Assembly (NCBI GenBank): GCA_001780275.1
Contig: MFGB01000023.1
Location: forward strand, 69,375-133,374
Source: Candidatus Falkowbacteria bacterium RIFOXYA2_FULL_47_19
GTDB taxonomy: Bacteria > Patescibacteriota > Patescibacteriia > Patescibacteriales > UBA12075
Reading direction: 5' to 3'
DNA length: 64,000 nt
The notes under the pieces are model-generated. The model was not told the origin of the DNA and ran no database searches. It saw only the letters and a list, made by a program, of their open reading frames with translations. Every line of letters starts with the position of its first letter. The stretch's first letter is position 1. Both the position numbers and the translations under genes were made by a program. This document shows positions 4,893-30,156 of the stretch, piece by piece.

Positions 4893-4893
4893 T

Positions 4894-5046: not shown

Positions 5047-5052
5047 AAACTT

Positions 5053-5325: not shown

Positions 5326-5384
5326 GCGCGGAAAGGGGCCGGGGCTAATTCGGCTCCGGCTCCTTTCTTAATTCTAAAATCAAT

Positions 5385-7967: not shown

Positions 7968-7987
7968 GGCTCGCTCCCTTGATTTGT

Positions 7988-8278: not shown

Positions 8279-8500
8279 AAGAATAAATCACGGCCGATTT
8301 TTTAAAAACCGATCTGGCAAGGCCGTTTGTTGCCACATCAGGATATGGCCTACATAGCGTCTGATAGCTTGCCTTAGTCAAGGTGGAGACTTGTACTACC
8401 TTGATAAAGGAAAAGCTGACGCTAAAATGGACTACCCTGATGAAGTCAAAAACGCCTCCGCTTCGGCTTATTCCTTGTCTTTTAAATTTCTTTCGTGCGG

Positions 8501-8550
8501 GCAAATATTTTGGCGGACGAGTCTGCCCGACCGGCCGCCAAAATATTTGC
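8501..8550. repeat. Perfect 16-bp inverted repeat with an 18-nt spacer in the 360-bp non-coding region upstream of Rep (origin candidate)
   Basis: gcaaatattttggcgg (8501-8516) pairs with ccgccaaaatatttgc (8535-8550). Confidence 0.8.
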
Positions 8551-8641
8551 AAACAGGATTTCAAGGCAAAGTAAATCCGCGGGCGGATTGCTTCTCTTAA
8601 CTTGATTATATTCACACATCTAACGAAAACAATCATCGTTT

Positions 8642-9442: not shown

Positions 9443-9612
9443 TGAAATTCACCAAAGAACAATTAAACGGTTTTATCGCCTTATACCAAAATGAATTCGG
9501 CGAAAAACTAAGTCCGGCCGAAGCGGAAAAACAAGCCTCCGCCTTGGTATCTTTGGTTAAAGCGACATATAAGCCGATGAGCAGGGAAGAGTTTAAAAAA
9601 TACGCTAATTGA
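9442..9612 (+). CDS. 56-aa hypothetical protein translationally coupled to Rep
   Basis: The ATG overlaps the Rep TGA (ctgATGa). Hand-translated: MKFTKEQLNGFIALYQNEFGEKLSPAEAEKQASALVSLVKATYKPMSREEFKKYAN. Confidence 0.4.
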   Translation: MKFTKEQLNGFIALYQNEFGEKLSPAEAEKQASALVSLVKATYKPMSREEFKKYAN

Positions 9613-9657
9613 CAATCCGTAACTTGCAAAAATGAATATTTGTGGTAGGATAATATT

Positions 9658-9761
9658 GAGACCTAACAGAATTGAATACAGCAAAAGCTTTTATCTATTT
9701 GTACCCGAAAGGGGCGGCTCCTGCCGACAAATAGGGCTTTTGCTTTATTCTGTTGGGTCTC
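9658..9761. repeat. ~104-nt nested imperfect hairpin (candidate packaging signal or complementary-strand origin)
   Basis: Three nested arm pairs: gagacctaacagaat (9658-9672) with attctgttgggtctc (9747-9761); gcaaaagc with gcttttgc; tatttgt with acaaata. Confidence 0.7.
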
Positions 9762-9780
9762 CAGGGCCGTCCCTTTTGTT

Positions 9781-10002
9781 ATGGAAAAAGAAAGAATCCA
9801 AAAACTTAAATTCCACGTAAAAAGCGAAGACTATTTCGGCACTTTGGCCACGATTTTGGATTTGTTCAGATTGGATGTTCTGGAAAAGAAATTTATTTTT
9901 GACAAAGACAAAGTCTTGAAGCAGATAGTAAAGGATTTGAAATATCTGCAAGATAATTTCGTAATCGTTAAGAAAAATGAGCGACACACAGACACAAAAT
10001 AA
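9781..10002 (+). CDS. Hypothetical 73-aa protein upstream of the integrase (RDF or regulator is possible but unsupported)
   Basis: The ORF overlaps the integrase start by 26 nt. No motif recognised. Confidence 0.35.
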   Translation: MEKERIQKLKFHVKSEDYFGTLATILDLFRLDVLEKKFIFDKDKVLKQIVKDLKYLQDNFVIVKKNERHTDTK

Positions 10003-11584
10003 ATATTTCGCTTATGTCCGCAAGTCTACCGAGGGCGAAGAACGGCAGGCGCTTTCGATTGAGAGCCAAAGGGATAAGGTGATCGAACAATTCCCCCATT
10101 TGGAAATCGTCGACACTTTGGAAGAAAGGCACTCCGCCTTTAAGCCGTACAACCGGCCCGCTTTTGAAGATATGATCCGGCGAATCAAGAAAGGCGAAGC
10201 CAACGGCATTATCGCCTGGCACCCGGACAGACTATCAAGAAACGAGATCGACGCGTCCACTCTCACCTATCTCGTGCGGACGGACGTTATCAAAGACTTA
10301 AAATTCGGATCGTACAATTTCGACAACAGCCCGGAAGGAATCATGATGTTGCAATTGGCACTTTCACAGTCGCAATATTTTTCTTCCAAACTCGGCAAGG
10401 ATGTAAAAAGAGGTTTGCAGAAAAAAATCCAAATGGGCTGGCGCCCCGGCCTGGCTCCGGAAGGTTATTTGAACATAATCGCGCAACAGCAAGGACTTAA
10501 AGAAATAAAGATCGATAAAAAACGCTTTTTCCTTTTGCGCCGGGCAATCGATAAATTTCTGACTGGCGCTTATACGGCTATGGAAGTACTGAATATCCTG
10601 AACAATGAATGGGGCTATAAGACGGTTAAACGGCGCAAGCTAGGCGGGAACGAATTATCAAAAAGCACCTGGTACAAGATTTTAACGAATCCTTTTTATG
10701 CCGGTGTAGTCGTTTTCAACGGAGTCGAAACCAAAGGCAAGCACAAGCCAATGATCACGATCAGCGAATACAACCGTATCCAGGAACTGCTCGGACTTCA
10801 TGGGGCCAAAAGACGGCCAAAGGAAAAGAATTTCATCTATTCCGGCATATTCAAGTGCGGAAACTGCGGATGTTCGATCACCGCCGAACACAAGACCAAA
10901 TTCATCAGAAGCAAGAAAAAAGTCAAAGATTACAGCTATTACCATTGCACCCGCAAAAAGAAAAACAACCCTTGCAAAGAAGGGTCGATCGAAGAAAAAA
11001 ACCTTGAAAGCCAGATCAAGAAGAACCTTAAAAAGCTGAAAATGCACCCCAAATTCCTGGAATGGGCTTTGGAGTACCTGGACGGCCAAAAAGGCCGGGA
11101 AAGGGTCGAGGAAAAGCAAATAAAGGATAACAAGGAAATGGAAGCCAAGGAACTGGAAAAGCAGATTTCCGCCCTGACAATGATGAGGGCGAAAGATTTA
11201 TTAAGCGACGAGGAGTATTTGAGCGAAAAGAAAAAATTACAGGACAAGGCCAAAAAATTGACGGAAAAAGAAGAAGACAAATTGACCGGCGATGAGCTGA
11301 TCGAGCTGACAAAGGAAAATTTCGTGTTTTCCGCTTACGCCTTAAAAGAGTTTGAAACCGGCGGAAAAGAGGGCAAAAGAGAGGTGCTTGCCAAGTTAGG
11401 TTCGAACCACGAAATAATCGACAGAAACCCTTGTATTTCAATCTATAAATGGCTTTTGCCGATCTACGAGTCCATGGAATCGTATAACGCCGAAATGGCA
11501 AGGTTAGAACCAAAGGAAACCCCGATAAACACAACACAAAAAGAGGCTTACGCCTCTCTTCGTCTACGATGGCACGGGTGGTAG
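9977..11584 (+). CDS. Large serine recombinase (integrase)
   Basis: N-terminal resolvase-type catalytic domain (YVRKSTEGEERQALSIESQRD, GIIAWHPDRLSRN). It also has a recombinase domain, a Cys-rich zinc ribbon (CGNCGCSITAEH...YYHCTRKKKNNPC) and a long charged coiled-coil. The last 15 nt overlap the 3' end of tRNA-Trp. Confidence 0.9.
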   Translation: MSDTQTQNKYFAYVRKSTEGEERQALSIESQRDKVIEQFPHLEIVDTLEERHSAFKPYNRPAFEDMIRRIKKGEANGIIAWHPDRLSRNEIDASTLTYLVRTDVIKDLKFGSYNFDNSPEGIMMLQLALSQSQYFSSKLGKDVKRGLQKKIQMGWRPGLAPEGYLNIIAQQQGLKEIKIDKKRFFLLRRAIDKFLTGAYTAMEVLNILNNEWGYKTVKRRKLGGNELSKSTWYKILTNPFYAGVVVFNGVETKGKHKPMITISEYNRIQELLGLHGAKRRPKEKNFIYSGIFKCGNCGCSITAEHKTKFIRSKKKVKDYSYYHCTRKKKNNPCKEGSIEEKNLESQIKKNLKKLKMHPKFLEWALEYLDGQKGRERVEEKQIKDNKEMEAKELEKQISALTMMRAKDLLSDEEYLSEKKKLQDKAKKLTEKEEDKLTGDELIELTKENFVFSAYALKEFETGGKEGKREVLAKLGSNHEIIDRNPCISIYKWLLPIYESMESYNAEMARLEPKETPINTTQKEAYASLRLRWHGW

Positions 11585-11643
11585 GAATCGAACCCACGCA
11601 AAGGGTTTTGGAAACCCTTGTACTACCATTATACTACACCCGC
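11570..11643 (-). tRNA. tRNA-Trp (anticodon CCA), CCA end encoded
   Basis: Hand-folded, 74 nt: acceptor GCGGGTG/CACCCGT; D-arm GTAT/GTAC; anticodon arm AGGGT-TTCCAAA-ACCCT; T-arm GTGGG-TTCGATT-CCTAC; discriminator G, then CCA. Confidence 0.9.
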
Positions 11644-14977: not shown

Positions 14978-15559
14978 CTAATAAACTTCCGCCTTCACCT
15001 GATAATATCCCTGAGGGTGGCCGCAGGCCGGACAGGCCGCGGGCGCGGATTTGCCACGGTGCTCGTAACCACACTGACGGCAGACCCAGACCGTTTCCTC
15101 ATCCTTCTGAAAAAGCGTTCCGCTTTCGAATTCGGCTAAAAGCTTTTTATAACGCTCTTCGTGGTGGGCCTCCGCCCGGGCGATCGAGCGCAGGCGGCCG
15201 GCGATCTCCGGCAGATTCTCCTTATTCGCTTCGTCAGCGAAATCCGGGTACATTTTCGTGTATTCGTGGTTTTCTCCCGCAATCGCCGCTCTGAGATTTT
15301 CCGCTGTCGTTCCGATCACGGTCGGCACTTCGGCCTCAACCTTGATATCGGCTTTTTTCCCATTTTGCTCTTCGAGTCCGTTGATCAGGCGCATGAGCCA
15401 TTTGGCGTGCTCCCGCTCCTGCTCGGCGGTTTCCAATAAAACAGCCGAAATCTGCTCATAACCTTCCTTTTTGGCGATCTTAGCATAGATCGTGTAACGA
15501 TTCCTGGCCATCGATTCGCCGATAAAAGCCTTCGCCAGATTGTTGATGGTATTTTGCAT
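14978..15559 (-). CDS. rbr: Rubrerythrin
   Basis: A ferritin-like di-iron domain (ARNRYTIYA...EQEREHAKW...AEAHHEERY) plus a C-terminal rubredoxin motif (CRQCG...CPACG). Confidence 0.9.
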   Translation of the reverse strand: MQNTINNLAKAFIGESMARNRYTIYAKIAKKEGYEQISAVLLETAEQEREHAKWLMRLINGLEEQNGKKADIKVEAEVPTVIGTTAENLRAAIAGENHEYTKMYPDFADEANKENLPEIAGRLRSIARAEAHHEERYKKLLAEFESGTLFQKDEETVWVCRQCGYEHRGKSAPAACPACGHPQGYYQVKAEVY

Positions 15560-18858: not shown

Positions 18859-19650
18859 TTATTTTAATCCGATAGTGGCGACGACCGGTTTGTGGTCCGA
18901 AACCTTGATTTCCGATAATATGCGGTAAGACAGGAATTCAAGTTCCGGGGACACGAGGATCCAGTCGACCCGGCGCCCGATCTTGGGGCAGGTCGGTATT
19001 CTCATTTCCGGAGCGTAGGTTTTAAGGTCCAGCCGGTCGCACAAGCGGCGCAAGGACGATTTTTTATGGTGCCATTCACAGTTAAAATCCCCCATGACGA
19101 CCATGGGCCGCCGCCGCGGATAAAAAAAGTCCATGATCTCGTCGGCTTGCCGGGAACGGATCCGGCTCCGGTAGCAATCGAGGTGAAGGGAAACGATATC
19201 CACTTCGGTTTCCGGCCGTCCGGGCCAGACGATCGTGCCGGTTACGAACCCTTTGCGGAACATGGGCGGGGACGGATCGAAGCTTACCGATCGCGAATCG
19301 CTCATGGGCAACCGGGAGAGCAGGGCCGTGCCGTAAAGCAGGTTCAAGCTCAGTTTCGGCGCGAGCTTCGGCCGGTTCACGTGCTCCCCCTGGATAGCTT
19401 CGCGGTAACCGGCTTTAGCGGCCAGATACGCGATATGGTTGAATTTTCCGCTCCAGAGAGCGCATCGGTCCGCCTCCTGCAGGGCCACGATATCGGCTTC
19501 CTCCGTCCGGTGGAGGAATGCGATCTCGTCAAGATTCTTCTCTATCCTTGTCCGGCCTTGAAAGACATTCCTCCGAAAAGGGTTTTTTTGCCCGATCTTC
19601 CACCCATGGCGGATATTCAACGTCATGAGCTTTAATGCTTGTTTATCCAT
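18859..19650 (-). CDS. Endonuclease/exonuclease/phosphatase (EEP) family protein
   Basis: Motifs LMTLNIRHG, IVALQEAD, VVMGDFN and SDHKPV. The start is placed at MDKQ, 10 nt after GGAGGTG. Confidence 0.8.
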   Translation of the reverse strand: MDKQALKLMTLNIRHGWKIGQKNPFRRNVFQGRTRIEKNLDEIAFLHRTEEADIVALQEADRCALWSGKFNHIAYLAAKAGYREAIQGEHVNRPKLAPKLSLNLLYGTALLSRLPMSDSRSVSFDPSPPMFRKGFVTGTIVWPGRPETEVDIVSLHLDCYRSRIRSRQADEIMDFFYPRRRPMVVMGDFNCEWHHKKSSLRRLCDRLDLKTYAPEMRIPTCPKIGRRVDWILVSPELEFLSYRILSEIKVSDHKPVVATIGLK

Positions 19651-19741
19651 AAAAAAATGCCACCTCCGGCGCATATAGCTTTAATAATATTTTTATCATA
19701 CCTCGCCGCCGCTGTCAACCTGGAAAAAGGTTAAAATAACA

Positions 19742-19770
19742 TAAAAAAACGGTTAAATGAATAACCGTTT
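19742..19770 (-). terminator. Rho-independent terminator after nadE
   Basis: The minus strand reads AACGGTTA-TTCATT-TAACCGTT followed by T7. Confidence 0.7.
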
Positions 19771-19821: not shown

Positions 19822-20793
19822 TCAATCGACCAAACCCTCTGCCCGCAGGATGTCTCGCGACAAGCCGGGAGCGGGTTCGACCTTATGGCGGGTTTTTTCT
19901 TCGATCAGGCGCAGAAAGGCGATCAGTTCCGCCTGTTCCCGGTCAAACCCGAGTTCGGCCATCATGCGCTCACGGGGCCAATCCTTTTTCTTGCCCGTGA
20001 TAACGCCCTCGGCAAGATTAGCTTTAAGCGCCCAGGCGATATTACCTTCGGTCGAAGCCGTACCATAGGATAAGGCTATATTAAAGCCTTCCCTCTGCGC
20101 CCAACCGGTAAGTTCATTCTCGTCGTTATGAGCATCGCCGCGCGCTAAAAGATCGGCGGAAGGAAGTTTATTGGCGATACGTTCCAGAATCGGAGCAGAC
20201 ATCTCTCCGGCCAGATAAACGGCGATTTGGCGCACTTCCGACTTAGTCAGGCCGTTTAAGATATTATTATCGACGGCTCCGTCGCCGAACTTATCGAAAT
20301 ACCGCAGCAGATCGTCTTCTTCCATGTTGCCGGTCCCGAAAATCCTTCCCCCGCCGTTATCGATCGCCTTGGCGATAAAACCGGCCATAGGCGTTGTTAG
20401 ACGTGATTTCAGGGAGGCGTATGCGTTGTCCCAGCCGGCCGCGGCCGCATCGGGCGTATTCTCGTCGTGCCATGGTAATCCGGCGGCCGCGAATTGACTG
20501 AAGCATTGCCGGAGAAATTCGTCATAAATCGGGTTGCCGTCGATCTCGATCAGCTTAAAGCCGAGAGCGTCGCGCAAGGCGCGGATATCGTTCCGGTGTT
20601 TCGGATCGGAACGGACATCGCGGTAAAGGACTGCGGTATTGTCCGGACCGAACGCACGGACGAGGATCGCCGCTATAACCGAAGAGTCGACCCCTCCGGA
20701 GCCGGCCACGAAAACCTTTGAACAGCAGCTACCCAGTTCCAACGCCCGACTTTCGAGTTTTTGCACGATTTTAGAGATTGGTGCTTTGAACAT
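19822..20793 (-). CDS. nadE: NAD+ synthetase-like PP-loop ATPase
   Basis: A PP-loop (VAGSGGVDSSV) and NadE-like downstream blocks (GTGNMEEDDL..., KSEVRQIA). At 323 aa it is longer than typical NH3-dependent NadE. Confidence 0.75.
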   Translation of the reverse strand: MFKAPISKIVQKLESRALELGSCCSKVFVAGSGGVDSSVIAAILVRAFGPDNTAVLYRDVRSDPKHRNDIRALRDALGFKLIEIDGNPIYDEFLRQCFSQFAAAGLPWHDENTPDAAAAGWDNAYASLKSRLTTPMAGFIAKAIDNGGGRIFGTGNMEEDDLLRYFDKFGDGAVDNNILNGLTKSEVRQIAVYLAGEMSAPILERIANKLPSADLLARGDAHNDENELTGWAQREGFNIALSYGTASTEGNIAWALKANLAEGVITGKKKDWPRERMMAELGFDREQAELIAFLRLIEEKTRHKVEPAPGLSRDILRAEGLVD

Positions 20794-20873
20794 AATTTTT
20801 CTCCTTGGGTTATTTTCTATATGAACCTGGTTATCGACAAAAGACGGCGGGATAAATTCCTGCCGCGGGTTGT

Positions 20874-21836
20874 TTACGACAGCAAGGGCCTGATGGCGTT
20901 CGCGTAAAGGCCGCTTATATCCGCTCCGATGAACTTATCCATATTAGCGACCAGCGGGTTCCGGCTCATCGGGTGCGAATTCGTATGCACTACCCATTTT
21001 AAAGGCGAAGCGATGATCTTTTTTATCACCTCATCGCTATTCGGGGCCAGATGGCTCAAAACGGCCGAAACGCTTCGCGCGCCTTTGCTCAGGTAGGCAT
21101 TGGCGGCATCGATCAAAGTCTTGAAGCTGCGGCTCATGTCGTCGTAAATGATGACGTTTTTTCCGTCCACGTCTCCGATCACGAGGTCAACTTCCGTTTC
21201 TTCCCCCCGCCTGGTTTTATGGACGAAAGCCATGTCCGGAACCTTGAACCGTTCGGCGAAATACTTGACCCAGAGCGGTCGCCCGAGATCGGCGGAGGCG
21301 AACATGAAATCATTGAACCGTATCTTTTCGAGGGCGCCGACCAGAAGGTCGCCGCCGTAAAGCTCAAAGCGCAGGCAATCCCCCTCGTAATAATGCACCA
21401 GGCCGCCGACATGCAGATCAAAGTGGAAAAAAGCGTTGCCTAATCCGGTGTTGGGAATACTGGACAATATCCTGATATTCGCTTTAGCTGTGACGATCTC
21501 GCCGGGAAGCACCGCCCGCTCCATGGTCGAATAACCCATGAACGGGATCAAGAATATCCGCCTGGCGGTACCGTAACCGGCCAAAGCGCAACCCACCCGG
21601 TAAAGCTCGTGAAAATCCTCGTCGGTATTGGTACTGCCGACAAAGATCGCGGTCCGGCCGAATAATTCGGCGCGGTCATCGATGCTTAAGCGGTAATACC
21701 TCTCGCCGCCGCCGAAGATCTTTCTTTCAACGCGTCCCACCGTCGGAATGCCGAGTCTAGCGGCTACCAATTCGGCGAAATACAAAGAAGCTTCGGTGGA
21801 AAATATCGCTATCTTCTTCCTGTCGGACTTTTTCAT
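20874..21836 (-). CDS. prs: Ribose-phosphate pyrophosphokinase (PRPP synthetase) homologue, divergent
   Basis: The layout is Prs-like (IFSTEASLYFAELVAARLG..., IPFMGYSTMERA, VIIYDDMSRSFKTL). The flexible-loop motif reads GYSTMERA where canonical Prs has GYARQDRK. Confidence 0.7.
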   Translation of the reverse strand: MKKSDRKKIAIFSTEASLYFAELVAARLGIPTVGRVERKIFGGGERYYRLSIDDRAELFGRTAIFVGSTNTDEDFHELYRVGCALAGYGTARRIFLIPFMGYSTMERAVLPGEIVTAKANIRILSSIPNTGLGNAFFHFDLHVGGLVHYYEGDCLRFELYGGDLLVGALEKIRFNDFMFASADLGRPLWVKYFAERFKVPDMAFVHKTRRGEETEVDLVIGDVDGKNVIIYDDMSRSFKTLIDAANAYLSKGARSVSAVLSHLAPNSDEVIKKIIASPLKWVVHTNSHPMSRNPLVANMDKFIGADISGLYANAIRPLLS

Positions 21837-21875
21837 GCCGCACCTCCGATAAAATATTAATTTACAAAGAACGCT

Positions 21876-21962
21876 CCCTTATTATAAACGCCCGGATGAG
21901 CGGTTATAATAAGGGGGCGGCGGGACGCAGGGACGATCATCCGTCTCTGCGTTCCCGCCGCC
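21876..21962 (-). promoter_or_regulatory. Two adjacent strong hairpins in the leader of prs
   Basis: The first is a 12-bp perfect stem: cccttattataa (21876-21887) with ttataataaggg (21904-21915). The second is a ~15-bp GC stem: ggcggcgggacgcag (21916-21930) with ctgcgttcccgccgcc (21947-21962). The RBS GGAGGTG and the ATG follow on the minus strand. Confidence 0.6.
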
Positions 21963-21970
21963 GTTTAATA

Positions 21971-22414
21971 TTACTCCGGCAAATTTAACAATTTCTCCCG
22001 CCGGTCCTTTATCTTTTTCCTGAGTTTTCGGGCCTCGTCCCTGGTAAGCGCGGCCGCGCGGGCCATATCCGCTTCCAGCTGATAGATTTTCTTCCAACCG
22101 TTACCGCGGCGGCCTTGCGTAATACGGGCCTCTTTAATGCTGGCTTTGGCCCGCTCTAATTCAGCTTGGGCGGAAGTGAATTCGCCCTCTGCCCGCCAGT
22201 GGACCGCCTGTTTGATCCGGACGGAAGCTTCGATCAGATAAGGTTCGGCATTCGCTTCCCGCCGATAAGACGGCCAGAAAAAAATCCCGACCAGCATAAA
22301 GATCGCCAAAAGCGCCAGAACCATGCACTTTAAATCTTTCCGCCAGTCAAACCACGCTTCGCCGTTGTAGTCTGATCCTTCCGGACCGTGATTGCAATCG
22401 TTTTCGTCGTACAT
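21971..22414 (-). CDS. Membrane-anchored coiled-coil protein, unknown function
   Basis: One TM segment (MVLALLAIFMLVGIFFW) followed by charged helices. The RBS GGAGGTGA overlaps the upstream TGA stop. Confidence 0.5.
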   Translation of the reverse strand: MYDENDCNHGPEGSDYNGEAWFDWRKDLKCMVLALLAIFMLVGIFFWPSYRREANAEPYLIEASVRIKQAVHWRAEGEFTSAQAELERAKASIKEARITQGRRGNGWKKIYQLEADMARAAALTRDEARKLRKKIKDRREKLLNLPE

Positions 22415-22418
22415 ATGA

Positions 22419-22871
22419 TCACCTCCCGAAAATTCTCGTTTCTATCTTCCCCTGGACTAATTCCAGGTCCTTCTCCTTCAGGCCGGCGTTTATTTCCCGG
22501 CGATAAAAAGATGAACTGCGCCAATATTTTCTTTCGTCGTATTTAAGCGGCGCCGGCCGAAACGGGCGCCAATAACGGCTGACCCTGAAAGCGGCGCGTA
22601 TTCCGAATTCATCCAGCAAAAAACCGTAATAAGTCGTGCGGTTTCCGACCGGATGCCCTCCGCCCTGGATAAAAAGCCTGTCGCCGGAAGATCTTATTCC
22701 GTCCGCTTCTTCCCGGAAAATATGCCAAATCTCATCCCGGGCCTCTTTTTTCAGAAAAAAATATTTTTGCCTTTCGCTTAAGAATCTCCCGCCGCGCCTG
22801 GATAGGCGGTGGCAGGCGGATAAAATCTCGCGACCCGCCGTCAAACACGGCAAAATAATTTTCGCTTCCAT
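22419..22871 (-). CDS. Hypothetical protein within the NAD cluster
   Basis: 150-aa ORF with an AAGGAG RBS. No motif recognised. Confidence 0.45.
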   Translation of the reverse strand: MEAKIILPCLTAGREILSACHRLSRRGGRFLSERQKYFFLKKEARDEIWHIFREEADGIRSSGDRLFIQGGGHPVGNRTTYYGFLLDEFGIRAAFRVSRYWRPFRPAPLKYDERKYWRSSSFYRREINAGLKEKDLELVQGKIETRIFGR

Positions 22872-22993
22872 GATAACTCCTTGAAATTTTACTTGTTTTT
22901 GGTTTAAAGAACGTCTCCTCGCTGCAAACGCTTAAATATTTTAAGTGTTTATAGTAAGGGGCGGAAAAAGTTTTCTCCGCCTTTTTTTATTTT

Positions 22994-24247
22994 TTAATAC
23001 TTGCAATCTTCCTTAAAAGTTACGTTATAGCCGATCTCGGCTTTTACTTCTTCAATATCGGCCGGCGCGCCGATGGCTTTGGCGATATTATCGGAAGTTT
23101 TGACCGTGCCGCGTCCGTTGGACCAAACCGCTTTCGAAACGATCGACGGCGTCGGAATCCCGACGTCGTTAGTAAGGTCCGTCCCCCAGCCGTAGCCGTA
23201 ATTCATAAGGCTTGTCACGTACTGGGCGTACTCGGCCATAGCTTCAACCGTCAGACCATCGGAAAAGATCACGCCCGTCTTCATCGGATCCAGGCCTGTT
23301 TCCCGGCATTTACGGAGAACCTTCCAGACGTATTCGTCGGCCGGACCGGAATCATGCCGGAAAAAATTCCACCAGGCGAACATCTCCGCGTTCATATTCT
23401 GAAATGCGAAATCCGTGGAATAGGTATCGGTCAGGGCGGTCATAAGAGCGGGCGCGAAAAGTTCGTGCCACTGTTCATAGACCTTATTCTGGGAAAAGGC
23501 CACCCGGTTATCCCGATCATGATAGACCCCGAAAAGAACCTGGAAAAGCGAGTGTGCCATCGTGCCTTGCGGAACCTCCCCTCTCTCCAGGGCCAGCGCC
23601 ACGTTAGAGGTGCCGATGACCTGATCGGGCAAGATCCTGCGCAGGCGGTAATACACTTCCCTTTGCCACCAGAGGCCATGGAAGCGCCGCCGGGTGCCGA
23701 ACTCAACGATATTTTTGATCTCCGGATGCTTCTTTAAAAAAACTATCTTGGCATCCAGATTATCCAAGCCCTCGAAGGCCACATCCGCGACATCAAGCTT
23801 GTATTTCGCCATATATCCCCGGCCGAAAAGGCTGGAAACGATGGATAGCTTCAGGGTTTCCCAAAGCTCCACTTCCGTCCATTTTCCCTGAGCTTCGATC
23901 TTCGGGTTGTCGCCGTCAGCACTGATAGCGAGTTGTCCGAAGTCCAGCTTGAGATCTCCCAGAAATTCCATGAAATCAGGAAAACGCCCGAAGATATTGA
24001 CGCCCTTGATATTGATCTGCGCGAGCTTCGTCAAATCGGCCTTGTCGATCCGGAGCGTGGAAACGTGATGCAGTTCCTCGGCCAACTGATCCGGATCAAT
24101 ATATTCAAGCAGAGGCAGGCTCTTGGTCCGGTTCTTGAAAGCATACCTGACCGGCACGTCCGGATAGTACCGAAAGGCGAAAAGAAGCATGAAAAGCTTA
24201 TAAGCGTCCAAATCTAAAAGCGAATTAATGATCCATTTCTTTTTCAT
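22994..24247 (-). CDS. pncB: Nicotinate phosphoribosyltransferase (PncB type)
   Basis: Blocks align by eye with E. coli PncB: SLLDLDAYKL, GKWTEVELWET, EFGTRRRF, GTSN, GTMAHSLF, ALTDTYSTD, RHDSGP, VIFSDGL. Confidence 0.85.
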   Translation of the reverse strand: MKKKWIINSLLDLDAYKLFMLLFAFRYYPDVPVRYAFKNRTKSLPLLEYIDPDQLAEELHHVSTLRIDKADLTKLAQINIKGVNIFGRFPDFMEFLGDLKLDFGQLAISADGDNPKIEAQGKWTEVELWETLKLSIVSSLFGRGYMAKYKLDVADVAFEGLDNLDAKIVFLKKHPEIKNIVEFGTRRRFHGLWWQREVYYRLRRILPDQVIGTSNVALALERGEVPQGTMAHSLFQVLFGVYHDRDNRVAFSQNKVYEQWHELFAPALMTALTDTYSTDFAFQNMNAEMFAWWNFFRHDSGPADEYVWKVLRKCRETGLDPMKTGVIFSDGLTVEAMAEYAQYVTSLMNYGYGWGTDLTNDVGIPTPSIVSKAVWSNGRGTVKTSDNIAKAIGAPADIEEVKAEIGYNVTFKEDCKY

Positions 24248-24257
24248 GAATCACCCC

Positions 24258-25283
24258 CTACGAGTATAATTCACGGCTGAATTCATCAGCCAGGGTAAAT
24301 ACCTCGTCCCGGTTACTAAGTCCGTCCGCGAGGCGCGCCGGGAATAACCTATCTCCGTTAAGCGCGCCGAGCATGGAGGCCAGGATCGATCCGTTCGTGT
24401 CCGTATCGCCGCCGGCCGACACTACGTCGTAAAGCGATTTAATGGAATACGGGTTCCGCAGGAAAAAGGCGTAAATAAAAGGCAGGCAGTCGTAAATATA
24501 GGCTTGACCGCCACCGAAACCGTTTATAATCTCTTCGTCGGTCAAACGGTTGTTGTCAAGTCTGATGCGTGACGCCAAATCCTCCAGCCGGGAGAACAGA
24601 CTATCTTTGATCTTAGGTACTCCGTATAAGCCGGCACAATAATATCCGTCATCACAGCCGTCCAAAATAGCGGCCAGAAATTCCAGATGGCTGAAGTCCG
24701 CGGCCCTCTCCAGATTCAAAAGATAAACCAGAGCATAAAGCTGAGTAAAAGTAGCCGCTACCGCCATATCGGAGTTATGCGTCATGACCGTGAACCTGAT
24801 CAGGTTATCCCGATCTTTTTCTTCCAGTCGGCCGAAAACGGACAGAGCCGGATAGTGGCGCGCGAAATAAGCCGCCACCGGACCGGTTTTCATAAGCACG
24901 CCGTTCCCGCCGCTCCCCTTAACTCCGGCTTCGCGCCAGAGCGAGCCTTTGACCATGTTTTTCATCGCCTGCCTGGTAGTGCGGCCCCAGCCGAAAGTTT
25001 TACCGTCCCAATAAGCTTCCAAAAGCCGGCTGGCGATATGTTCCGGATCAAAGCATCCGCAACCGATGATCGACCGGGCGACAATAGCGCTTTGCTGCCA
25101 ATCGTCCGTTATGCCGGACTTAAGACCCTTGAACCATTTGTGATCCGCGTCCGGATCGATATAGCCGGTTATCCGGCCGTGTCGACCGCGGATCTTGGCC
25201 GCGTCGTAGGTTTCGACCGCCATCCCGAGCTGGTCGCCGATGGCGACGCCCTTAATAAGGCCTCGAATCTTATCCTCTCTCAT
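24258..25283 (-). CDS. ADP-ribosylglycohydrolase family protein
   Basis: N-terminal GVAIGDQLGMAVE and C-terminal GGDTDTNGSILASMLGA, both hallmark ARH/DraG motifs. Confidence 0.85.
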   Translation of the reverse strand: MREDKIRGLIKGVAIGDQLGMAVETYDAAKIRGRHGRITGYIDPDADHKWFKGLKSGITDDWQQSAIVARSIIGCGCFDPEHIASRLLEAYWDGKTFGWGRTTRQAMKNMVKGSLWREAGVKGSGGNGVLMKTGPVAAYFARHYPALSVFGRLEEKDRDNLIRFTVMTHNSDMAVAATFTQLYALVYLLNLERAADFSHLEFLAAILDGCDDGYYCAGLYGVPKIKDSLFSRLEDLASRIRLDNNRLTDEEIINGFGGGQAYIYDCLPFIYAFFLRNPYSIKSLYDVVSAGGDTDTNGSILASMLGALNGDRLFPARLADGLSNRDEVFTLADEFSRELYS

Positions 25284-25307
25284 GATTCCTCCAGGTTAAC
25301 CGTTCGT

Positions 25308-26336
25308 TTATTGGTTCATAAGTTCGTAACCGCGCGCGAAATCATCGTTATTCATGCCCATGGCCCGTTTGATCAGGATATCGCGGTCGAATGGATTCTT
25401 CGTGTCCCGGAATTCTTCCAGAAGCCCGGCAGCCTTAAGTTCGGTCAGAAATGGCCTGGAGCTTACCCGGATCGGATAATCCGAACCATAAACGATCCGG
25501 GAATGGATAATTTCATCGGCCAAAGACGCTTTAAGGCGCGCTTTCCGGTGCACAGAAGACATGCCGGCCGTATCAAAATAAAGATTGGCCCGCGCTTTTA
25601 CCATAATTTTCATCAAATTAAATTGCCCGGATCGATTAACGTAAGGCGTTCCGCCGGCTAAGTGAGCCGCGCAAAGACTTACGTTTTTGGAAAGCGGCAA
25701 CCCGAGTCTTTCTAAACGGGCGTATAACCTCTTTAAAACCGGCAAGGCAAACTCAAACCCGACGTGGGTCAAAATCGTAATACCGGCATCCCGGGTCAGA
25801 TCATAAAACTCGTTGATATGCGAAGAATATTCTTCAACGCGCCGGACCGGGAAATAAGCGCCTCCGTCCGGGCTGAAGCTCATGACAGAAGGCAGCCATT
25901 TCATAATCTTAATTCCGCGCTCAATGCATTTAGCGAGCTCTTCCCGCCAATCGGCGCGGACCGGGTTGATCGAGGCCGCCGGGATGATCTTGTCCGGACT
26001 TAAACGGTGTAATTCCCAGACCGCGTCATTACTTACGTATAGTGATGTATGTGTTTTATCCAGCTTTCCGTCGAGATCATAAACGCCGTCAAAGGGCAGC
26101 ACCACGACATGGGACAAGGCGGATTCTTCGATATGGCGAAGCATCGCGTTGCGGTATTCCTCGTGCAGCCTTTCAATGTTATAAAAATAGGGGTCGTTCA
26201 AGTCGTACGGATCAACGCCGATCCCTTTAAGATAAGAATTCATCCGAAGACTTCTGATAAACTGGGTGTTTACAAAGCCGTCTTTGAGATCAAATGCAAA
26301 AAGGTGGCAGTGCACATCTATGATATTTCCGGCCAT
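25308..26336 (-). CDS. Metal-dependent amidohydrolase (TIM-barrel, amidohydrolase_2-like)
   Basis: N-terminal IIDVHCHLF metal-binding motif and a late GSDYP motif. Confidence 0.65.
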   Translation of the reverse strand: MAGNIIDVHCHLFAFDLKDGFVNTQFIRSLRMNSYLKGIGVDPYDLNDPYFYNIERLHEEYRNAMLRHIEESALSHVVVLPFDGVYDLDGKLDKTHTSLYVSNDAVWELHRLSPDKIIPAASINPVRADWREELAKCIERGIKIMKWLPSVMSFSPDGGAYFPVRRVEEYSSHINEFYDLTRDAGITILTHVGFEFALPVLKRLYARLERLGLPLSKNVSLCAAHLAGGTPYVNRSGQFNLMKIMVKARANLYFDTAGMSSVHRKARLKASLADEIIHSRIVYGSDYPIRVSSRPFLTELKAAGLLEEFRDTKNPFDRDILIKRAMGMNNDDFARGYELMNQ

Positions 26337-26442
26337 TTATTCTCCCTTCGCTTTTTAGTTGTTTCTATTTAAAGAGCTATCCATAATGTCCGAAGATCTG
26401 ATTTACCTCCAAACCACATCTCTGAACACTAAAAAGTTACGA

Positions 26443-26518
26443 GCCTGCCCCGTGATCCCGACGCTTCGGGATTTTACGGTGCCTGCCCCGTGATCCCGAC
26501 GCTTCGGGATTTTACGGG
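26443..26518. repeat. Two tandem 38-bp copies of a nested hairpin, starting 1 nt after the nadD-nadK stop
   Basis: The unit is gcctgccccgtgatcccgacgcttcgggattttacgg(t/g), at 26443-26480 and 26481-26518. The two copies are identical except for the last base. On the minus strand the first copy folds CCCCGU-AAA-AUCCCGA-AGCG-UCGGGAU-C-ACGGGG; in the second copy the outer stem is shorter (CCGU with ACGG). Confidence 0.9.
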
Positions 26519-26519
26519 G

Positions 26520-27896
26520 TTATGAGATAAGATACGGCAGATTGAGCCTGGTGTGCTTAGCCACAATATCCGATTCCCGCAAAAACGCCAATTCGACCGC
26601 GGCGACACGACTCTGACTTACGCGCATGCTCTCTATGTCTCCTAAAGGCACGCCGTCCACGAATCCGCGCACCGGGCGCTTTTTACCGCCGATGGTTTTA
26701 AATTCTACTGCCGCGTCCCGGGAAATAACCGAATTCTTCCAGTTGGCCGGCTCGGCTATGTTCATGCCGGCAAGGATCAGATGCGAGGCGTAAGGCGGCA
26801 GGGAAAAACCGGCGATATGGCGCGCATAGCCGGTCGAACCGGCCGCGGTCGCGACCAAAAGGCCGTCTCCGGCCACCTTCGGAATAAAGCAGCCGTCAAG
26901 CTTTACCTCGAACCAGGCCGACTGCCCCCCGCGGCGCTCCGCCCAGGCATCGGCGAAACCGACCGTTTGGATCCGTTCGCCCTTCGAATTTTTTATAAGA
27001 ACGGACAAAAGCGGCAGTTGATAAACGACGAAAGGCTTATTTAAAATATCCGGATCCCCCTCGTTCAATAAAAATCCCTGGTGCCCGGCGTTAACCCCGA
27101 TAAAGGGCAGGCGAAGAGCCCAGTATTTCCGGATCGCCCGGAGCATTGTCCCGTCGCCGCCGATAACGACGATCGCGTTCGCCTCCTTAAGGCCGGCGCT
27201 CTCGCCCGATCTATTTTTAATTTCGACGGCCTTGCCGTTTTTTTCGTCCGCCACGAAAAAAGGCTTTAAGCGGTTTAGTTCAAGGATCGCTTTCTGCTGG
27301 GGGAAAATACCCCGGTAAAGGTTATACCGCTTGATGTACGCGGCCACTTCCGGGGCAACCAGATCATCGACCGGCTTATGGTTAAAGACCCGGTTCCTGA
27401 TCTCCGTGCTCGACCCCGAGTGATCGGGACTTATTACTGTATGGCGCGGCGGCAGATCGGCTTCGTTCCATTCGTAGCCGGAACGTTTCACGACGACAAA
27501 ATTACTTTCTTTCCAGAGCTCTTCTCCGCGCTCCCATTCCCTCTGGATCGCCGCACGGCCCTCCGATCCTCCCTGGACAAGGTCGAAGCCGATAACGTGC
27601 CAGACCTCTCCCCTGATCCCGTATCTTTTTTCGAGTTCGTGCGTCCGCGTAAAGACATTATTGCTAAGATCGGCGTGATCCACTCTCACTTTTTCAGGCA
27701 ATCCCCTGAGGGCCAGATCGGCCATGGCCGCCCGGTGCACCGGCTCGATATCGTTGGTCGTGGCCTTGTCCGGCCGCGGGCCGCAGAGCACGACAATAAT
27801 CTCGTCGAATTCCGGCAAGAGTTTCTTGATAATATTTATGTGATGCGTCCCCAGGGGATTGAAACTTCCCCCGAAAAGCGCGACTTTTCTTTTCAT
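26520..27896 (-). CDS. Fusion of nicotinate/nicotinamide mononucleotide adenylyltransferase (N-terminal) and NAD kinase (C-terminal)
   Basis: The N-terminus is VALFGGSFNPLGTHHINI, the (H/T)xGH nucleotidyltransferase motif. The C-terminus has VVIGGDGTMLRAIRKY (GGDG), NAGHQGFL and VATAAGSTGYARHIAG, which are NAD-kinase motifs. Confidence 0.8.
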   Translation of the reverse strand: MKRKVALFGGSFNPLGTHHINIIKKLLPEFDEIIVVLCGPRPDKATTNDIEPVHRAAMADLALRGLPEKVRVDHADLSNNVFTRTHELEKRYGIRGEVWHVIGFDLVQGGSEGRAAIQREWERGEELWKESNFVVVKRSGYEWNEADLPPRHTVISPDHSGSSTEIRNRVFNHKPVDDLVAPEVAAYIKRYNLYRGIFPQQKAILELNRLKPFFVADEKNGKAVEIKNRSGESAGLKEANAIVVIGGDGTMLRAIRKYWALRLPFIGVNAGHQGFLLNEGDPDILNKPFVVYQLPLLSVLIKNSKGERIQTVGFADAWAERRGGQSAWFEVKLDGCFIPKVAGDGLLVATAAGSTGYARHIAGFSLPPYASHLILAGMNIAEPANWKNSVISRDAAVEFKTIGGKKRPVRGFVDGVPLGDIESMRVSQSRVAAVELAFLRESDIVAKHTRLNLPYLIS

Positions 27897-27910
27897 GACC
27901 TTTTGATCGT

Positions 27911-27942
27911 CCGGTAGAGACGTGGCATTGCCACGTCTCTGC
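27911..27942. repeat. Hairpin CCGGTAGAGACG-N-CGTCTCTGC (copy 1)
   Basis: The sequence is ccggtagagacgtggcattgccacgtctctgc. It lies 14 nt upstream of the nadD-nadK ATG. Confidence 0.8.
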
Positions 27943-28056
27943 TAAGCGCGACGGTTATAAAAAATTTTCCTAAAAAACTTAATCCCAATCGCTTCGGATA
28001 AAATTTTTTAGAAGCGAGGAGAATGGCTTTCTCCTCGCTTGTTTTTCTCAAACTCT

Positions 28057-28611
28057 TTAAACGATCTTCGCTCCGTAGAGTTTTTCCATGCGCTTCAGAG
28101 AGAATTCATGCGCATGGTTGTCAAAGTCAGCTACCCCCAAGCGCGGCACGACGATCCCGTAGTCCCGATTGGCGAGTCCGCCGACCGTATCCATAACGCA
28201 GATAGAGGTACAAACTCCGACCACCTCCACCTCTGTCGCTCCCCCCGGGACGCTCAAATGCTTCATGAGAATATGCAGCGAAGTGTTAAAAAATCCGCTG
28301 TAACGCTGTTTATTTATAATGTACTCAAAACTGCCGCCGGATCTCCAGGCCTGAGTGTCCGGCCACAGCTCGCCAACAATATTCGCGCCCCATGTGCCAG
28401 TCACGCAATGCTCAGGAAAACGCCGGAATTCCAAATCGTTTTTTTTGTGATTGTCGCAGAGAAAAACGATCAGGTCTTTTTGCACCCTGGCTTTTTCCAG
28501 CTCGCTTTTGACAAACGGAATTATGTGGCGGCCACTTTCAAAATACAGCGCCCCACCCGGAGTTATAAAATCATTGAGCATATCCACTATGATCAAAGCT
28601 CTGTGTTCCAT
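28057..28611 (-). CDS. pncA: Nicotinamidase / isochorismatase-family hydrolase
   Basis: ALIIVDMLNDF carries the catalytic Asp, and VVGVCTSICV carries the catalytic Cys. The gene sits next to pncB and nadD. Confidence 0.75.
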   Translation of the reverse strand: MEHRALIIVDMLNDFITPGGALYFESGRHIIPFVKSELEKARVQKDLIVFLCDNHKKNDLEFRRFPEHCVTGTWGANIVGELWPDTQAWRSGGSFEYIINKQRYSGFFNTSLHILMKHLSVPGGATEVEVVGVCTSICVMDTVGGLANRDYGIVVPRLGVADFDNHAHEFSLKRMEKLYGAKIV

Positions 28612-28644
28612 CTTTTCCCCCTTTCTTATCCGTGATCAATAGGA

Positions 28645-29103
28645 TTAAACCCGGCGGCGCTGATACGCGCGCCGTGTTCTGATCAAGCTTTCCATGCCGG
28701 CCTTGAATTTATCCCTGATCTTTTTCGGCCGGGTTTCCGCCTCCTTGGCTGGTACGCGCAGATGAGCGTCAAATTCGTCGCCGGGATAATTTTGAATGGC
28801 GATTTGCAATTCCCGAATTATCTCAACCGGTATTTCCGGTCCGGCGGACAATGCCCCGCTATTACGGCGCGTGTCGTCATCCAGAAAAATCATCGGCCAC
28901 TCTCTGGCTCCAGCGCCTGACCCGACAAACAGAATTTTGGATCTTTCATCTTTTTCATCAGCACCCATGCTCTCCGCGATCACCGGGCACTGAAAAATAT
29001 TCAGGACATCCTGCAATTCGCCCAAAGACAAACCGCTGATGTCCAGGATCGGCAACCCGTCCTCGAAATAAATGATCAGGCACATATTTTTCTTCTCGCG
29101 CAT
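28645..29103 (-). CDS. Hypothetical protein
   Basis: 152-aa ORF with a GGGGGTGA RBS. No motif recognised. Confidence 0.45.
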   Translation of the reverse strand: MREKKNMCLIIYFEDGLPILDISGLSLGELQDVLNIFQCPVIAESMGADEKDERSKILFVGSGAGAREWPMIFLDDDTRRNSGALSAGPEIPVEIIRELQIAIQNYPGDEFDAHLRVPAKEAETRPKKIRDKFKAGMESLIRTRRAYQRRRV

Positions 29104-29214
29104 AGAATCACCCCCCTTTTCAATCTTTTAAAGAGTTATTCGGCTAAAAAGAACCATTAAAATAAAAAATTTTATCTCAAAAAAATTTTTCAGGTAAAAT
29201 TTTCTGTTTTATAA

Positions 29215-29235
29215 TTTTACTTATATTAAGTAAAA
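29215..29235. promoter_or_regulatory. 21-bp perfect palindrome in the AT-rich gap downstream of the NrtR-like gene (candidate operator)
   Basis: The palindrome is ttttactta-tat-taagtaaaa. It lies ~110 nt upstream of the 152-aa ORF start. Confidence 0.4.
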
Positions 29236-29381
29236 ATTAAAATCTGGGTTTTTTCTTCGAAATTCATTAAACTTTAACACAAAAATTTTAATTTGTCAAG
29301 TGCAAAACACCCCACCACTCTCTCTTCCGGTCCGATCATCTTATTATTGTATTTTATACACTAACTAAAGACAAAAAAATA

Positions 29382-30056
29382 TCAGAGTATCTCGATATTT
29401 TCCGGACGGTGGGAAAGGAAGCGGTAAAGGGCGGCCGGACGGTTGGCCTCGCCGATCGTCTTTTTTTCGGTCGCCTTAAGAATCTTAAGGGCCAGGATCT
29501 TTTTCCGGAAATTGCGCTTGTCGAGTTCCCTGTCCAGTATTATTTCGTAGGTTTTCTGCATATCGCCCAAGGTGAACTCTTCCGGGAGAAGGCTATAAAC
29601 GACATTCGTGTACTCCAGTTTCACGCGCAAGCGCTTGACGGCGCAGCCGATTATTTCCTGGTGGTCGTAAGCGAGCTCGGGCAGTTTATCGACCGGATGC
29701 CACTCCACTCCACCGTATTCCGCGCTCGTCTTTAATTTAAGGCCGGCGTTGGGGATAAGCGCGTAATAAGCGACGGACACCACCCGGCCGAAAGGGTCCC
29801 GATCCACCCGGCCGAAAGTATAGAGCTGTTCCAGGAAAACGTCCGTGACGCCGGTTTTCTCCTTAAGTATCCGGCGAGCGGCATTATCCACTGATTCAAG
29901 CGGCCGGACAAGACCGCCGGGAGCGGCCCACATATCCAAAAACGGCTTTTTCTTCATCTTAATGAGTAAAACCTGAAGTTTTCCGTCCTTAACGGTAAAG
30001 ATAACGATATCGGCGGCGATCACGGCGAACTTGTATTTCGGCTGTATTTTGGGCAT
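29382..30056 (-). CDS. nrtR: NrtR-like regulator (Nudix domain with degenerate Nudix box plus C-terminal winged-helix domain)
   Basis: The Nudix fold has an incomplete box (APGGLVRPLESVDNAARRILKEKTGV). The C-terminal ~90 aa (EYTNVVYSLLPEEFTLGDMQKTYEIIL...FRKKIL) is typical of NrtR. The gene sits in an NAD-gene context. Confidence 0.7.
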   Translation of the reverse strand: MPKIQPKYKFAVIAADIVIFTVKDGKLQVLLIKMKKKPFLDMWAAPGGLVRPLESVDNAARRILKEKTGVTDVFLEQLYTFGRVDRDPFGRVVSVAYYALIPNAGLKLKTSAEYGGVEWHPVDKLPELAYDHQEIIGCAVKRLRVKLEYTNVVYSLLPEEFTLGDMQKTYEIILDRELDKRNFRKKILALKILKATEKKTIGEANRPAALYRFLSHRPENIEIL

Positions 30057-30156
30057 ACTCGTGTCTTAGAATTAAAAACGTCAAATGTCTGGTGCTGGGT
30101 GTTTGTGTATATCTAACACTATTATAGCATTGCGGAAAACCCTGTCAAGACCCCGC

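Follow-up and report, generated by a model that had tools for sequence, protein, structure and literature searches.

A chromosomal gene cluster that likely encodes the whole Preiss-Handler route of NAD(P) salvage under control of the regulator NrtR was found in a bacterium belonging to the candidate phyla radiation (CPR), Candidatus Falkowbacteria bacterium RIFOXYA2_FULL_47_19, within a 64-kb stretch of contig MFGB01000023.1 (hereafter the window). The open reading frame (ORF) list of the window contains 11 ORFs between positions 19822 and 30056 (hereafter the island), all on the minus strand, in agreement with an earlier note made from the letters of this DNA, and several of their products are 100% identical to A2303_02125 to _02175 of Candidatus Falkowbacteria bacterium RIFOXYB2_FULL_47_14. 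This orientation is shared well outside the island, as the minus-strand run of all large ORFs spans approximately 11.7-32 kb. We assigned domains by Pfam and NCBIfam profile searches, sequence comparisons with the PDB and motif positions. The domain calls of the earlier note, including a nadD-nadK fusion, an ADP-ribosylglycohydrolase and an amidohydrolase, were confirmed by these analyses, and pncA, pncB and nadE, whose reassignment to unrelated families would have contradicted it, all remained in their families. The features of the island and its 3' end are as follows:

29382-30056, minus strand: nrtR, Nudix-like effector domain and C-terminal NrtR winged helix
28645-29103, minus strand: orf2, 152 aa, first gene past operator 2 (see below)
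28057-28611, minus strand: pncA, isochorismatase family, predicted nicotinamidase (nicotinamide to nicotinate)
26520-27896, minus strand: nadD-nadK fusion, nicotinate mononucleotide (NaMN) adenylyltransferase at residues 1-197 and NAD kinase at residues 216-441
25308-26336, minus strand: Amidohydro_2 (PF04909) gene, metal-dependent hydrolase or decarboxylase
24258-25283, minus strand: ADP-ribosylglycohydrolase (ARH) gene, DraG/ARH family, ADP_ribosyl_GH domain
22994-24247, minus strand: pncB, nicotinate phosphoribosyltransferase of class I type, NAPRTase_N and NAPRTase domains
22419-22871, minus strand: orf8, 150-aa member of a rare family
21971-22414, minus strand: orf9, 147-aa membrane-anchored coiled-coil protein (UniRef name DUF4398)
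20874-21836, minus strand: prs-like gene, Class IV-type phosphoribosyl pyrophosphate (PRPP) synthase, Pribosyltran_N and Pribosyl_synth domains
19822-20793, minus strand: nadE, divergent NH3-type NAD synthetase (predicted conversion of nicotinate adenine dinucleotide, NaAD, to NAD), NAD_synthase domain
19747-19770, minus strand: terminator-like hairpin with T-run (intrinsic type), closing the cluster

Seven intergenic gaps were counted, and not five as had been noted before. The ARH gene is tightly packed, with a 24-nt gap to its upstream gene and a 10-nt gap to pncB.

Predicted enzymes of the Preiss-Handler route

PncA is predicted to be a nicotinamidase, including its substrate specificity. 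It matched PF00857 (E = 1.3e-29) and the nicotinamidases of the PDB at 1e-15, and D10, CDNH (52-55), the nicotinamidase-type motif PEHCVTGTWGA (66-76), K101 and C136 make up its Asp-Lys-Cys triad and metal site. PncB contained both PF17767 and PF04095 as well as the motifs GTRRR, GTMAH and GWGTDLTND, and its best PDB match was PncB of A. tumefaciens (3.7e-56). Its GTMAH (228-232) aligned to GTNAH of 1ybe with retention of the His, which we take to be the phosphorylated residue, as in Salmonella PncB. The match spanned the full length of PncB, with scores below the NCBIfam trusted cutoffs (TIGR01514, 229.8 vs 269.55; NF003704, 291.3 vs 379). In the nadD-nadK fusion, both catalytic domains were intact, as judged by the NadD motifs GGSFNPLGTHH and SSTEIR and the NadK motifs GGDG, NEG and GDG...GSTGY. 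At least 120 full-length homologues of the fusion (approximately 460 aa) were present in Patescibacteria, Planctomycetota, Verrucomicrobiota, Desulfobacterota and Acidobacteriota; this fusion is widespread and not peculiar to the genome studied here. The 323-aa NadE scored 73.1 bits against PF02540 (cutoff 21) and 68.7 bits against TIGR00552 (cutoff 63.65), with SGGVDS at residues 32-37. It is predicted to make NAD from NaAD, with a preference for NaAD over NaMN. Most island proteins fell below NCBIfam equivalog cutoffs, and we therefore regard them as divergent family members that are not closely orthologous to the curated proteins.

Two additional enzymes are encoded between the nadD-nadK fusion and pncB. 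ARH carried the motifs TDD and GGDTDT with intact metal ligands and resembled MJ1187 and DraG; it probably releases free ADP-ribose. The Amidohydro_2 protein contained HxH and GSDYP, and sequence comparison with the PDB gave no relative of it. Homologues at approximately 40% identity occurred in contexts other than NAD metabolism, in one case next to ribosomal genes of archaeal type.

A predicted Class IV-type PRPP synthase linked to pyridine salvage

The prs-like gene product (hereafter PRPS) showed 26% identity to E. coli Prs with a score of 76 bits, compared with 27-29 bits for the Adps proteins of Bas63 and SPbetaL1, and E. coli Prs used as a tblastn query found the prs-like gene of the island as its sole match in the window. 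The catalytic residues H142 (DLH at 140-142), D183, K207 and D232-D233 were all kept. GYSTMER was located at residues 101-107, with STMER in the regulatory flexible (RF) loop, where Thr takes the place of the equivalent of Class I Arg96; this motif was invariant in 20 aligned family members. The motif FGGGE (41-45) retained the FLAG-region Glu, which is lost in Class II, and E45 was also invariant. The C-terminal allosteric and filament residues of Class I were absent, the alignment stopping before the NEESISAMFEH tail of E. coli Prs. Family motifs in addition to GYSTMER and the retained FxxGE were DLHxxGLVHYFEG and YDDMxRSGxT, and eukaryotic members were 52-55% identical. These features are those of Class IV PRPS, which was defined in a bioRxiv preprint of June 2026 (10.64898/2026.06.01.728777); in that work a recombinant Class IV enzyme from the eukaryote Corallochytrium produced PRPP from ribose 5-phosphate (R5P) plus ATP, and CPR profiles were closest to Class IV. 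We thus assign the prs-like gene to Class IV, with PRPP synthesis as its predicted activity. A presumed resemblance to plant Class II PRPS had served as a lead and was replaced by the class definitions of the preprint.

We examined 80 genomic loci of the prs-like family for the nearest pyridine phosphoribosyltransferase within 6 kb, and approximately half of them had one. PncB-I was found within this distance in 9 of the 14 CPR-like loci. Among the 66 loci from other bacteria (Cytophagales, Myxococcota, Planctomycetota and others), the partner was PncB-II in 30 and NadV in three, and NadE, PncA and NrtR were often encoded alongside members of the PRPS family. In loci outside CPR (L020-L083) an STMER-type PRPS was located between a 490-aa PncB-II and glutamine-dependent NadE or PncA, often with NrtR nearby; NadV replaced PncB-II in three Bacteroidota loci, and about half of the loci had no NAD gene within 6 kb. 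The NadV partners carried the PRPP-type Nampt motif GGALLQKxDRD and not the adenine clamp of Namat, GSxTxQxNTRD. In the CPR clusters, NadD and NadK were encoded beside PncB, and an ADP-ribose pyrophosphatase resembling YffH/AdpP, which would be a source of R5P, was frequent. Taken together, the class of the PRPS, its partners, the Nampt motif and the presence of NadD and NadK favor a PRPP synthase for pyridine salvage over an analogue of Adps. The earlier suggestion that the prs-like gene supplies PRPP is therefore strengthened by the Class IV signature, the activity known for this class, the genomic partners and, as described below, an in situ replacement by a Class II-like gene.

The NrtR regulator and its putative operators

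The first gene of the island encodes an NrtR-like protein with both of the expected domains: a Nudix domain at residues 16-133 (PF00293, E = 2.8e-16) and a winged helix at residues 154-213 (PF21906 NrtR_WHD, E = 6.5e-25, profile positions 2-61 of 61), so that the regulator call of the earlier note holds. The Nudix box (GLVRPLESVDNAARRILKEKTGV) is degenerate, with RILKEK in place of REUxEE and two of the three glutamates of REUxEE lost, which fits a sensor rather than a hydrolase. With 159.9 bits against the NCBIfam equivalog NF050029 (cutoff 400), the protein is a divergent member of the family and not an equivalog of the curated set. The nrtR gene was 96% identical to its orthologue in the sister genome described below.

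Operators of the NrtR family are 21-bp palindromes with a GT-N7-AC core (PMC2330246), and we scanned the intergenic gaps for 21-bp palindromes with this core. Such a search had been proposed in the earlier note; it uncovered two palindromes that flank nrtR and are conserved in related CPR loci:

30121-30148, minus strand: nrtR promoter, TTGACA, 16-nt spacer and TATAAT (12 of 12 matches, TG-extended)
30102-30122: putative NrtR operator 1, ATAGTGTTAGATATACACAAA in the minus-strand reading, starting at the final base of the -10 hexamer
29344-29364: putative NrtR operator 2, TTAGTGTATAAAATACAATAA in the minus-strand reading, 18 nt past the nrtR stop codon and ahead of orf2-pncA

The position of putative operator 1 is that expected for autorepression. 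Operator 2 overlapped a weak promoter-like site (29346-29374), and a promoter with TTGACA, a 17-nt spacer and TAAAGT was located downstream of it at 29271-29299. The exact pattern TAGTGT-N7-ACA occurred twice in the 64 kb, with both copies flanking nrtR. Seven intergenic sites of the form TTAGTGT-N7-ACACTAA were found in other CPR loci, flanking nrtR in the same way in L004, L009 and L016, plus one in L015. A weight matrix built solely from these seven sites ranked operator 2 first (28.7 bits) and operator 1 second (18.3 bits) among approximately 64,000 positions of the window. The two-site layout was also present in L087 and L088, and single sites in L085 and L015; sites equivalent to operator 1, 5' of nrtR, were found in L004, L009, L016, L085, L087 and L088. 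The third-ranked match of the matrix (46665-46685) lies inside a PrgI-like ORF and was taken as chance. In the matrix scan no site above background was found before nadD-nadK, the amidohydrolase gene, orf8, prs or nadE. By contrast, the orthologous pair of Class IV PRPS and nadE in L088 is directly preceded by an NrtR site and therefore appears to be an NrtR target in a related genome.

Mosaic structure of the island

The sister genome was represented by contig L087 of another Falkowbacteria assembly (GCA_043801965.1), which is syntenic with the window from the CoA-transferase gene to Fpg. The flanks were 90-96% identical between the two genomes, compared with 73-77% nucleotide identity for the interior from pncA to orf9. 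Between its operator 2 and orf2, the sister genome has pnuC and nadR, for the uptake and salvage of nicotinamide riboside. These genes are absent from the window, where the slot is a 278-bp AT-rich gap (29104-29381, corresponding to 6816-8685 of L087) and where the nucleotide homology ends precisely at the operator 2 edge, position 29344; tblastn of the window with PnuC, NadR, Nampt/Namat and Adps queries gave no match. The sister genome also contains an extra 93-aa ORF past pncB (a 282-bp indel). Moreover, the slot in which both genomes have prs and nadE is occupied by non-orthologous genes, with 24% and 29% amino-acid identity, respectively. The PRPS of the sister genome is Class II-like (GTMER, FKDGW without the FLAG-region Glu, and DDIVNSGGT), and its NadE is a canonical NH3-dependent enzyme (TIGR00552, 166 bits). 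The window-type pair, a Class IV PRPS with the divergent 323-aa NadE, was also found in L010 and L088. The prs and nadE genes have thus been exchanged in place as a cassette, which argues that both pairs do the same job. The island is therefore a mosaic in which the interior diverges faster than the flanks, pnuC-nadR are present or absent, and the prs-nadE pair is exchangeable.

Proposed mechanism and alternative explanations

We propose that PncA would convert nicotinamide to nicotinate, that the Class IV-type PRPS would form PRPP from R5P, and that PncB would combine nicotinate and PRPP into NaMN. The NadD domain of the fusion would then convert NaMN to NaAD, NadE would amidate NaAD to NAD, and the NadK domain would phosphorylate NAD to NADP. 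NrtR would repress both the nrtR promoter and the promoter region of orf2-pncA via the two 21-bp palindromes and, by analogy with characterized NrtR proteins, would be released by free ADP-ribose, a by-product of NAD consumption. The ADP-ribose could come from NAD-consuming enzymes or from ARH, which in the latter case would enlarge the ADP-ribose pool and so contribute to induction. Expression of the five downstream units without an NrtR site might occur by read-through from the orf2 promoter or independently; read-through is plausible since the hairpins 3' of pncA, nadD-nadK, pncB and orf9 have no coding-strand T-runs.

Several points weigh against such an NrtR-controlled salvage cluster. 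The R5P loop of the PRPS reads RSFKT, compared with RSGxT in the family and DTGGT in Class I. NadE is highly divergent, 5 bits over its cutoff and with a top PDB E-value of 1.7e-8, and the NCBIfam equivalog cutoffs were mostly missed (NrtR, 160 vs 400; PncB, 230 vs 269.55; PRPS, 95 vs 113). As to regulation, the operator pattern with at most one mismatch was not enriched window-wide (6 found, 3.3 expected), and the case for the operators therefore rests on their position and conservation; NrtR sites were found in two of the seven intergenic gaps, and most of the island may escape NrtR control. Four of the 11 genes (orf2, orf8, orf9 and the Amidohydro_2 gene) have no assigned role. Finally, the analysis covered 64 kb, and further NAD routes or a second PRPS may be present elsewhere in the genome.

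The most far-reaching alternative is a deamidated version of the phage NARP1 pathway, in which PRPS would pyrophosphorylate ADP-ribose to ADP-ribose pyrophosphate, a PncB-like enzyme would join this product with nicotinate to give NaAD, NadE would complete NAD, and ARH would supply the ADP-ribose. Phage pairs described as prs-nampt proved to be Adps-Namat (10.1101/2024.02.11.579819) and bacterial versions exist (PMC12774641); the PRPS studied here is far from Class I (26% identity to E. coli Prs), has the altered R5P loop DDMSRSFKT, belongs to a family with tight genomic links to pyridine phosphoribosyltransferases, to NrtR and to NadE, and shares its cluster with ARH. However, its scores (27-29 bits to Adps and 42.7 bits to the phage PRPS family phrog_619, compared with 76 bits to E. 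coli Prs) and its Class IV signature point elsewhere, as PRPP synthase activity is known for an enzyme of Class IV. NadD, which direct formation of NaAD would make superfluous, is conserved in CPR clusters, the NadV partners have the PRPP-type Nampt motif instead of the adenine clamp, the ADP-ribose pyrophosphatase of sister clusters would compete for ADP-ribose, and PncB is canonical in appearance. We therefore consider this pathway very unlikely, and a NARP1-like prs-pncB pair was rejected as the main explanation after comparison with the Adps and Namat proteins of Bas63 and SPbetaL1. There is likewise just a slim chance that the Class IV-type PRPS of the island and the related proteins encoded next to PncB, NadV and NadE across many phyla pyrophosphorylate ADP-ribose in addition to, or instead of, R5P. 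If they did, the result together with PncB and NadE would be a deamidated equivalent of NARP1 in cells, in which NAD is rebuilt directly from both products of its cleavage, with ARH supplying ADP-ribose and the RSFKT loop accommodating the ADP moiety. A different departure from the Preiss-Handler route concerns NadE. In Francisella, an NMN synthetase converts NaMN to nicotinamide mononucleotide (NMN), and if the NadE-like protein were of this type, the NadD domain would serve as an NMN adenylyltransferase. NadE is barely over its family cutoff and aligns poorly to solved NaAD-specific enzymes, and the NadK partner would then have the immediate product of the adenylyltransferase domain as its substrate. 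Nevertheless, this appears quite improbable: in the sister genome this slot is occupied by a canonical NH3-dependent NadE (TIGR00552, 166 bits), in most CPR clusters by a glutamine-dependent NadE, and the adenylyltransferase is of NadD type and not of NadM type.

Two other alternatives concern the control or the purpose of the cluster. The genes might be clustered without forming a common regulon, with NrtR controlling only itself and orf2-pncA (pnuC-nadR-orf2-pncA in the sister genome) and the other units being constitutive or under a factor that binds the repeated intergenic element described below. The lack of an above-background NrtR site before nadD-nadK, the amidohydrolase gene, orf8, prs and nadE, the hairpins after pncA, nadD-nadK, pncB and orf9, and the paralogous palindrome-bearing element before orf8 and prs, which recurs in the sister genome, all speak for this possibility, but the NrtR site ahead of Class IV PRPS-nadE in L088 speaks against it; on balance we regard it as somewhat unlikely; it bears on regulation alone and is compatible with the pathway assignment. 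It is less likely still that the island does not serve housekeeping salvage but is a mobile or exchangeable counter-measure to the loss of NAD, such as by NADases of phage or host. Reconstitution of NAD is used by phages against defence systems that deplete it (10.1101/2024.02.11.579819), and the island is mosaic compared with the sister genome (flanks 90-96%, interior 73-77%, prs-nadE replaced, indels of pnuC-nadR and the 93-aa ORF). On the other hand, its edges contain no integrase, transposase or repeat boundary, its GC content is that of its neighbours, a reduced genome needs a salvage route anyway, and the same cluster is vertically widespread in CPR. PADLOC gave no credible defence family for ten island and flanking proteins, the only match being NrtR at E = 0.005, and a scan of eight proteins against phage families yielded matches only for ARH, weakly for PRPS and very weakly for NAPRTase. 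An NrtR-controlled Preiss-Handler cluster for salvage thus appears to be the best explanation of the island.

Comparison with known systems

The cluster is a well-built but expected example, as every piece of it has a precedent in NrtR regulons. Rodionov et al. (2008) listed nrtR-pncA-pncB-nadD-nadE in C. acetobutylicum as well as nrtR-draG (PMC2330246), prs-nadV is known from several phyla, and the statement of the earlier note that NrtR regulons with prs, pncA/B and nadE are established is borne out by the precedents given there. Its claim that so complete a pathway together with an ADP-ribose-processing enzyme is unusual has to be softened: near-identical clusters recur in CPR and other genomes (L085, L016, L018, L087 and L088), such as nrtR-pncA-nadDK-pncB-nadE(gln) on one 1.5-Mb contig (L085), and comparable arrangements are already listed (PMC2330246). 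What the island shares with the described NAD-salvage regulons (PMC2330246) is a Nudix and winged-helix repressor adjoining Preiss-Handler genes and a 21-bp operator with the GT-N7-AC core, one copy of which lies on the regulator's own promoter. It differs from them in its CPR host, in the lineage-specific operator consensus TTAGTGT-N7-ACACTAA, in additionally containing PRPS, NadK fused to NadD, ARH, an amidohydrolase and three proteins without family assignment, and in having sites in two of seven gaps only.

More specific likenesses were also evident. In the NrtR-controlled prs-nadV operons of Shewanella, Acinetobacter and Cytophaga hutchinsonii (PMC2330246), a PRPS-like gene is likewise located by a pyridine phosphoribosyltransferase near nrtR; the partner in the window is PncB (nicotinate), in contrast to NadV (nicotinamide). 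Cytophagales members of the present PRPS family were indeed found beside NadV and NrtR (L026, L043 and L063). With the Class IV family as described, the PRPS shares STMER in the RF loop, the FLAG-region Glu, the loss of the C-terminal allosteric and filament residues and the affinity to CPR, but it has RSFKT in the R5P loop instead of RSGxT (10.64898/2026.06.01.728777). That preprint contains no word starting with 'nicotin', and a link to NAD-salvage genes is not discussed in it. Phage NARP1 (Adps and Namat; Osterman et al., 10.1101/2024.02.11.579819) also pairs a PRPS-family gene with a NAPRTase-family gene, whereas in the island the PRPS falls outside the clade of Adps, a canonical PncB and not Namat is the transferase, NadD, NadE and PncA are present, and the cluster is chromosomal and, according to the operators, under NrtR. 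An ADP-ribosylglycohydrolase clustered with NrtR is known from nrtR1-draG of Streptomyces (PMC2330246); in the island, in contrast, ARH lies within the salvage operon, 10 nt upstream of pncB and after the Amidohydro_2 gene.

A literature search on CPR NAD salvage returned no paper matching the full query. CPR bacteria are thought to depend on their hosts for most building blocks, and the island suggests that this lineage keeps a self-contained and regulated pathway that leads from nicotinamide up to NADP and comprises a PRPP supply of its own. Our analysis adds three modest new points. The Class IV assignment of the PRPS and the strong neighborhood link of this class to NAD salvage (Class II-like in one sister genome) is one; the predicted CPR NrtR operator consensus TTAGTGT-N7-ACACTAA, which could be used for regulon reconstruction, is another; and the third is the in-place exchange of the prs-nadE cassette. 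These suggest a setting for bacterial Class IV/II PRPS as allosterically unregulated suppliers of PRPP for pyridine salvage in swappable prs-nadE cassettes, and such a setting would explain the long-noted 'second prs' of NrtR regulons.

Rare proteins and additional intergenic elements

The three proteins for which no function had been suggested before, orf2, orf8 and orf9, indeed belonged to no assigned family, with no match in Pfam, PADLOC or PHROGs and, for orf2 and orf8, none in NCBIfam either. They are real genes, as they are conserved in the sister genome (39%, 72% and 57% amino-acid identity, respectively), where the orf2 orthologue is found at the same position. The family of orf8 is very rare, with 5 clusters among 1.84 billion representatives in an exhaustive HMMER search, and shows the conserved motifs GRFxSxKQ and RRREINAGL; one homologue on an unrelated contig sits two genes past a NAPRTase gene. 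The AlphaFold2 model of orf8 was confident (mean pLDDT 80), and a Foldseek comparison of this model with the PDB gave nothing better than E = 1.

The intergenic gaps contain further elements in addition to the putative operators:

28012-28040: hairpin with a 12-bp stem after pncA, possible partial terminator, T-run on the plus strand only
27917-27939: perfect 23-bp palindrome GAGACGTGGCAATGCCACGTCTC, 20 nt before the nadD-nadK start codon
26443-26517: 37-nt unit with a hairpin (ATCCCGA/TCGGGAT), perfectly duplicated in tandem, just 3' of nadD-nadK
22872-22993 and 21837-21970 (15218-15348 and 16256-16396 in L087): paralogous intergenic element, preceding orf8 and prs

The duplication of the 37-nt unit appears to be recent, as the sister genome has one copy. 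The stretch of the 23-bp palindrome had no nucleotide match in the sister genome and may be an operator or an RNA hairpin. The paralogous element consists, in order, of a GC-rich hairpin, CCCCTTAnTATAA, an AT-rich palindrome and GG..GTTCTTT, and it may be a promoter or the operator of a second regulator, that is, a second control point.

Neighboring regions and other loci

Directly 3' of nadE, behind the terminator and a promoter-like site of its own, is a gene of the endonuclease/exonuclease/phosphatase (EEP) family (18859-19674) that is 96% conserved in the sister genome; some EEP enzymes, such as nocturnin, are NADP(H) phosphatases. A radical-SAM gene of approximately 284-317 aa, absent from the window, was observed near NaPRT/NAD salvage genes in three unrelated contigs (L088, 13994-16882; L085, 13042-13995; and a JGI contig with P0375).

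At greater distance from the island, the first part of the window (1-11643) is a block of plus-strand ORFs with low GC content (29-33% over the first 4 kb). Among their products are a Zot-like protein (7242-7967), a protein of the Rep ORF2/G2P type (8642-9442) and a large serine recombinase (9977-11584), the end of which adjoins tRNA-Trp (11570-11643). This block has the look of an inovirus-like element that is integrated in a CPR genome. On the other side, the regions 43432-48261 and 52250-61048 contain genes resembling those of type IV secretion or conjugation, including a TraG/VirB4 P-loop ATPase (43432-45354) and a PrgI-family protein (46136-46723); a 2932-aa ORF is also present.

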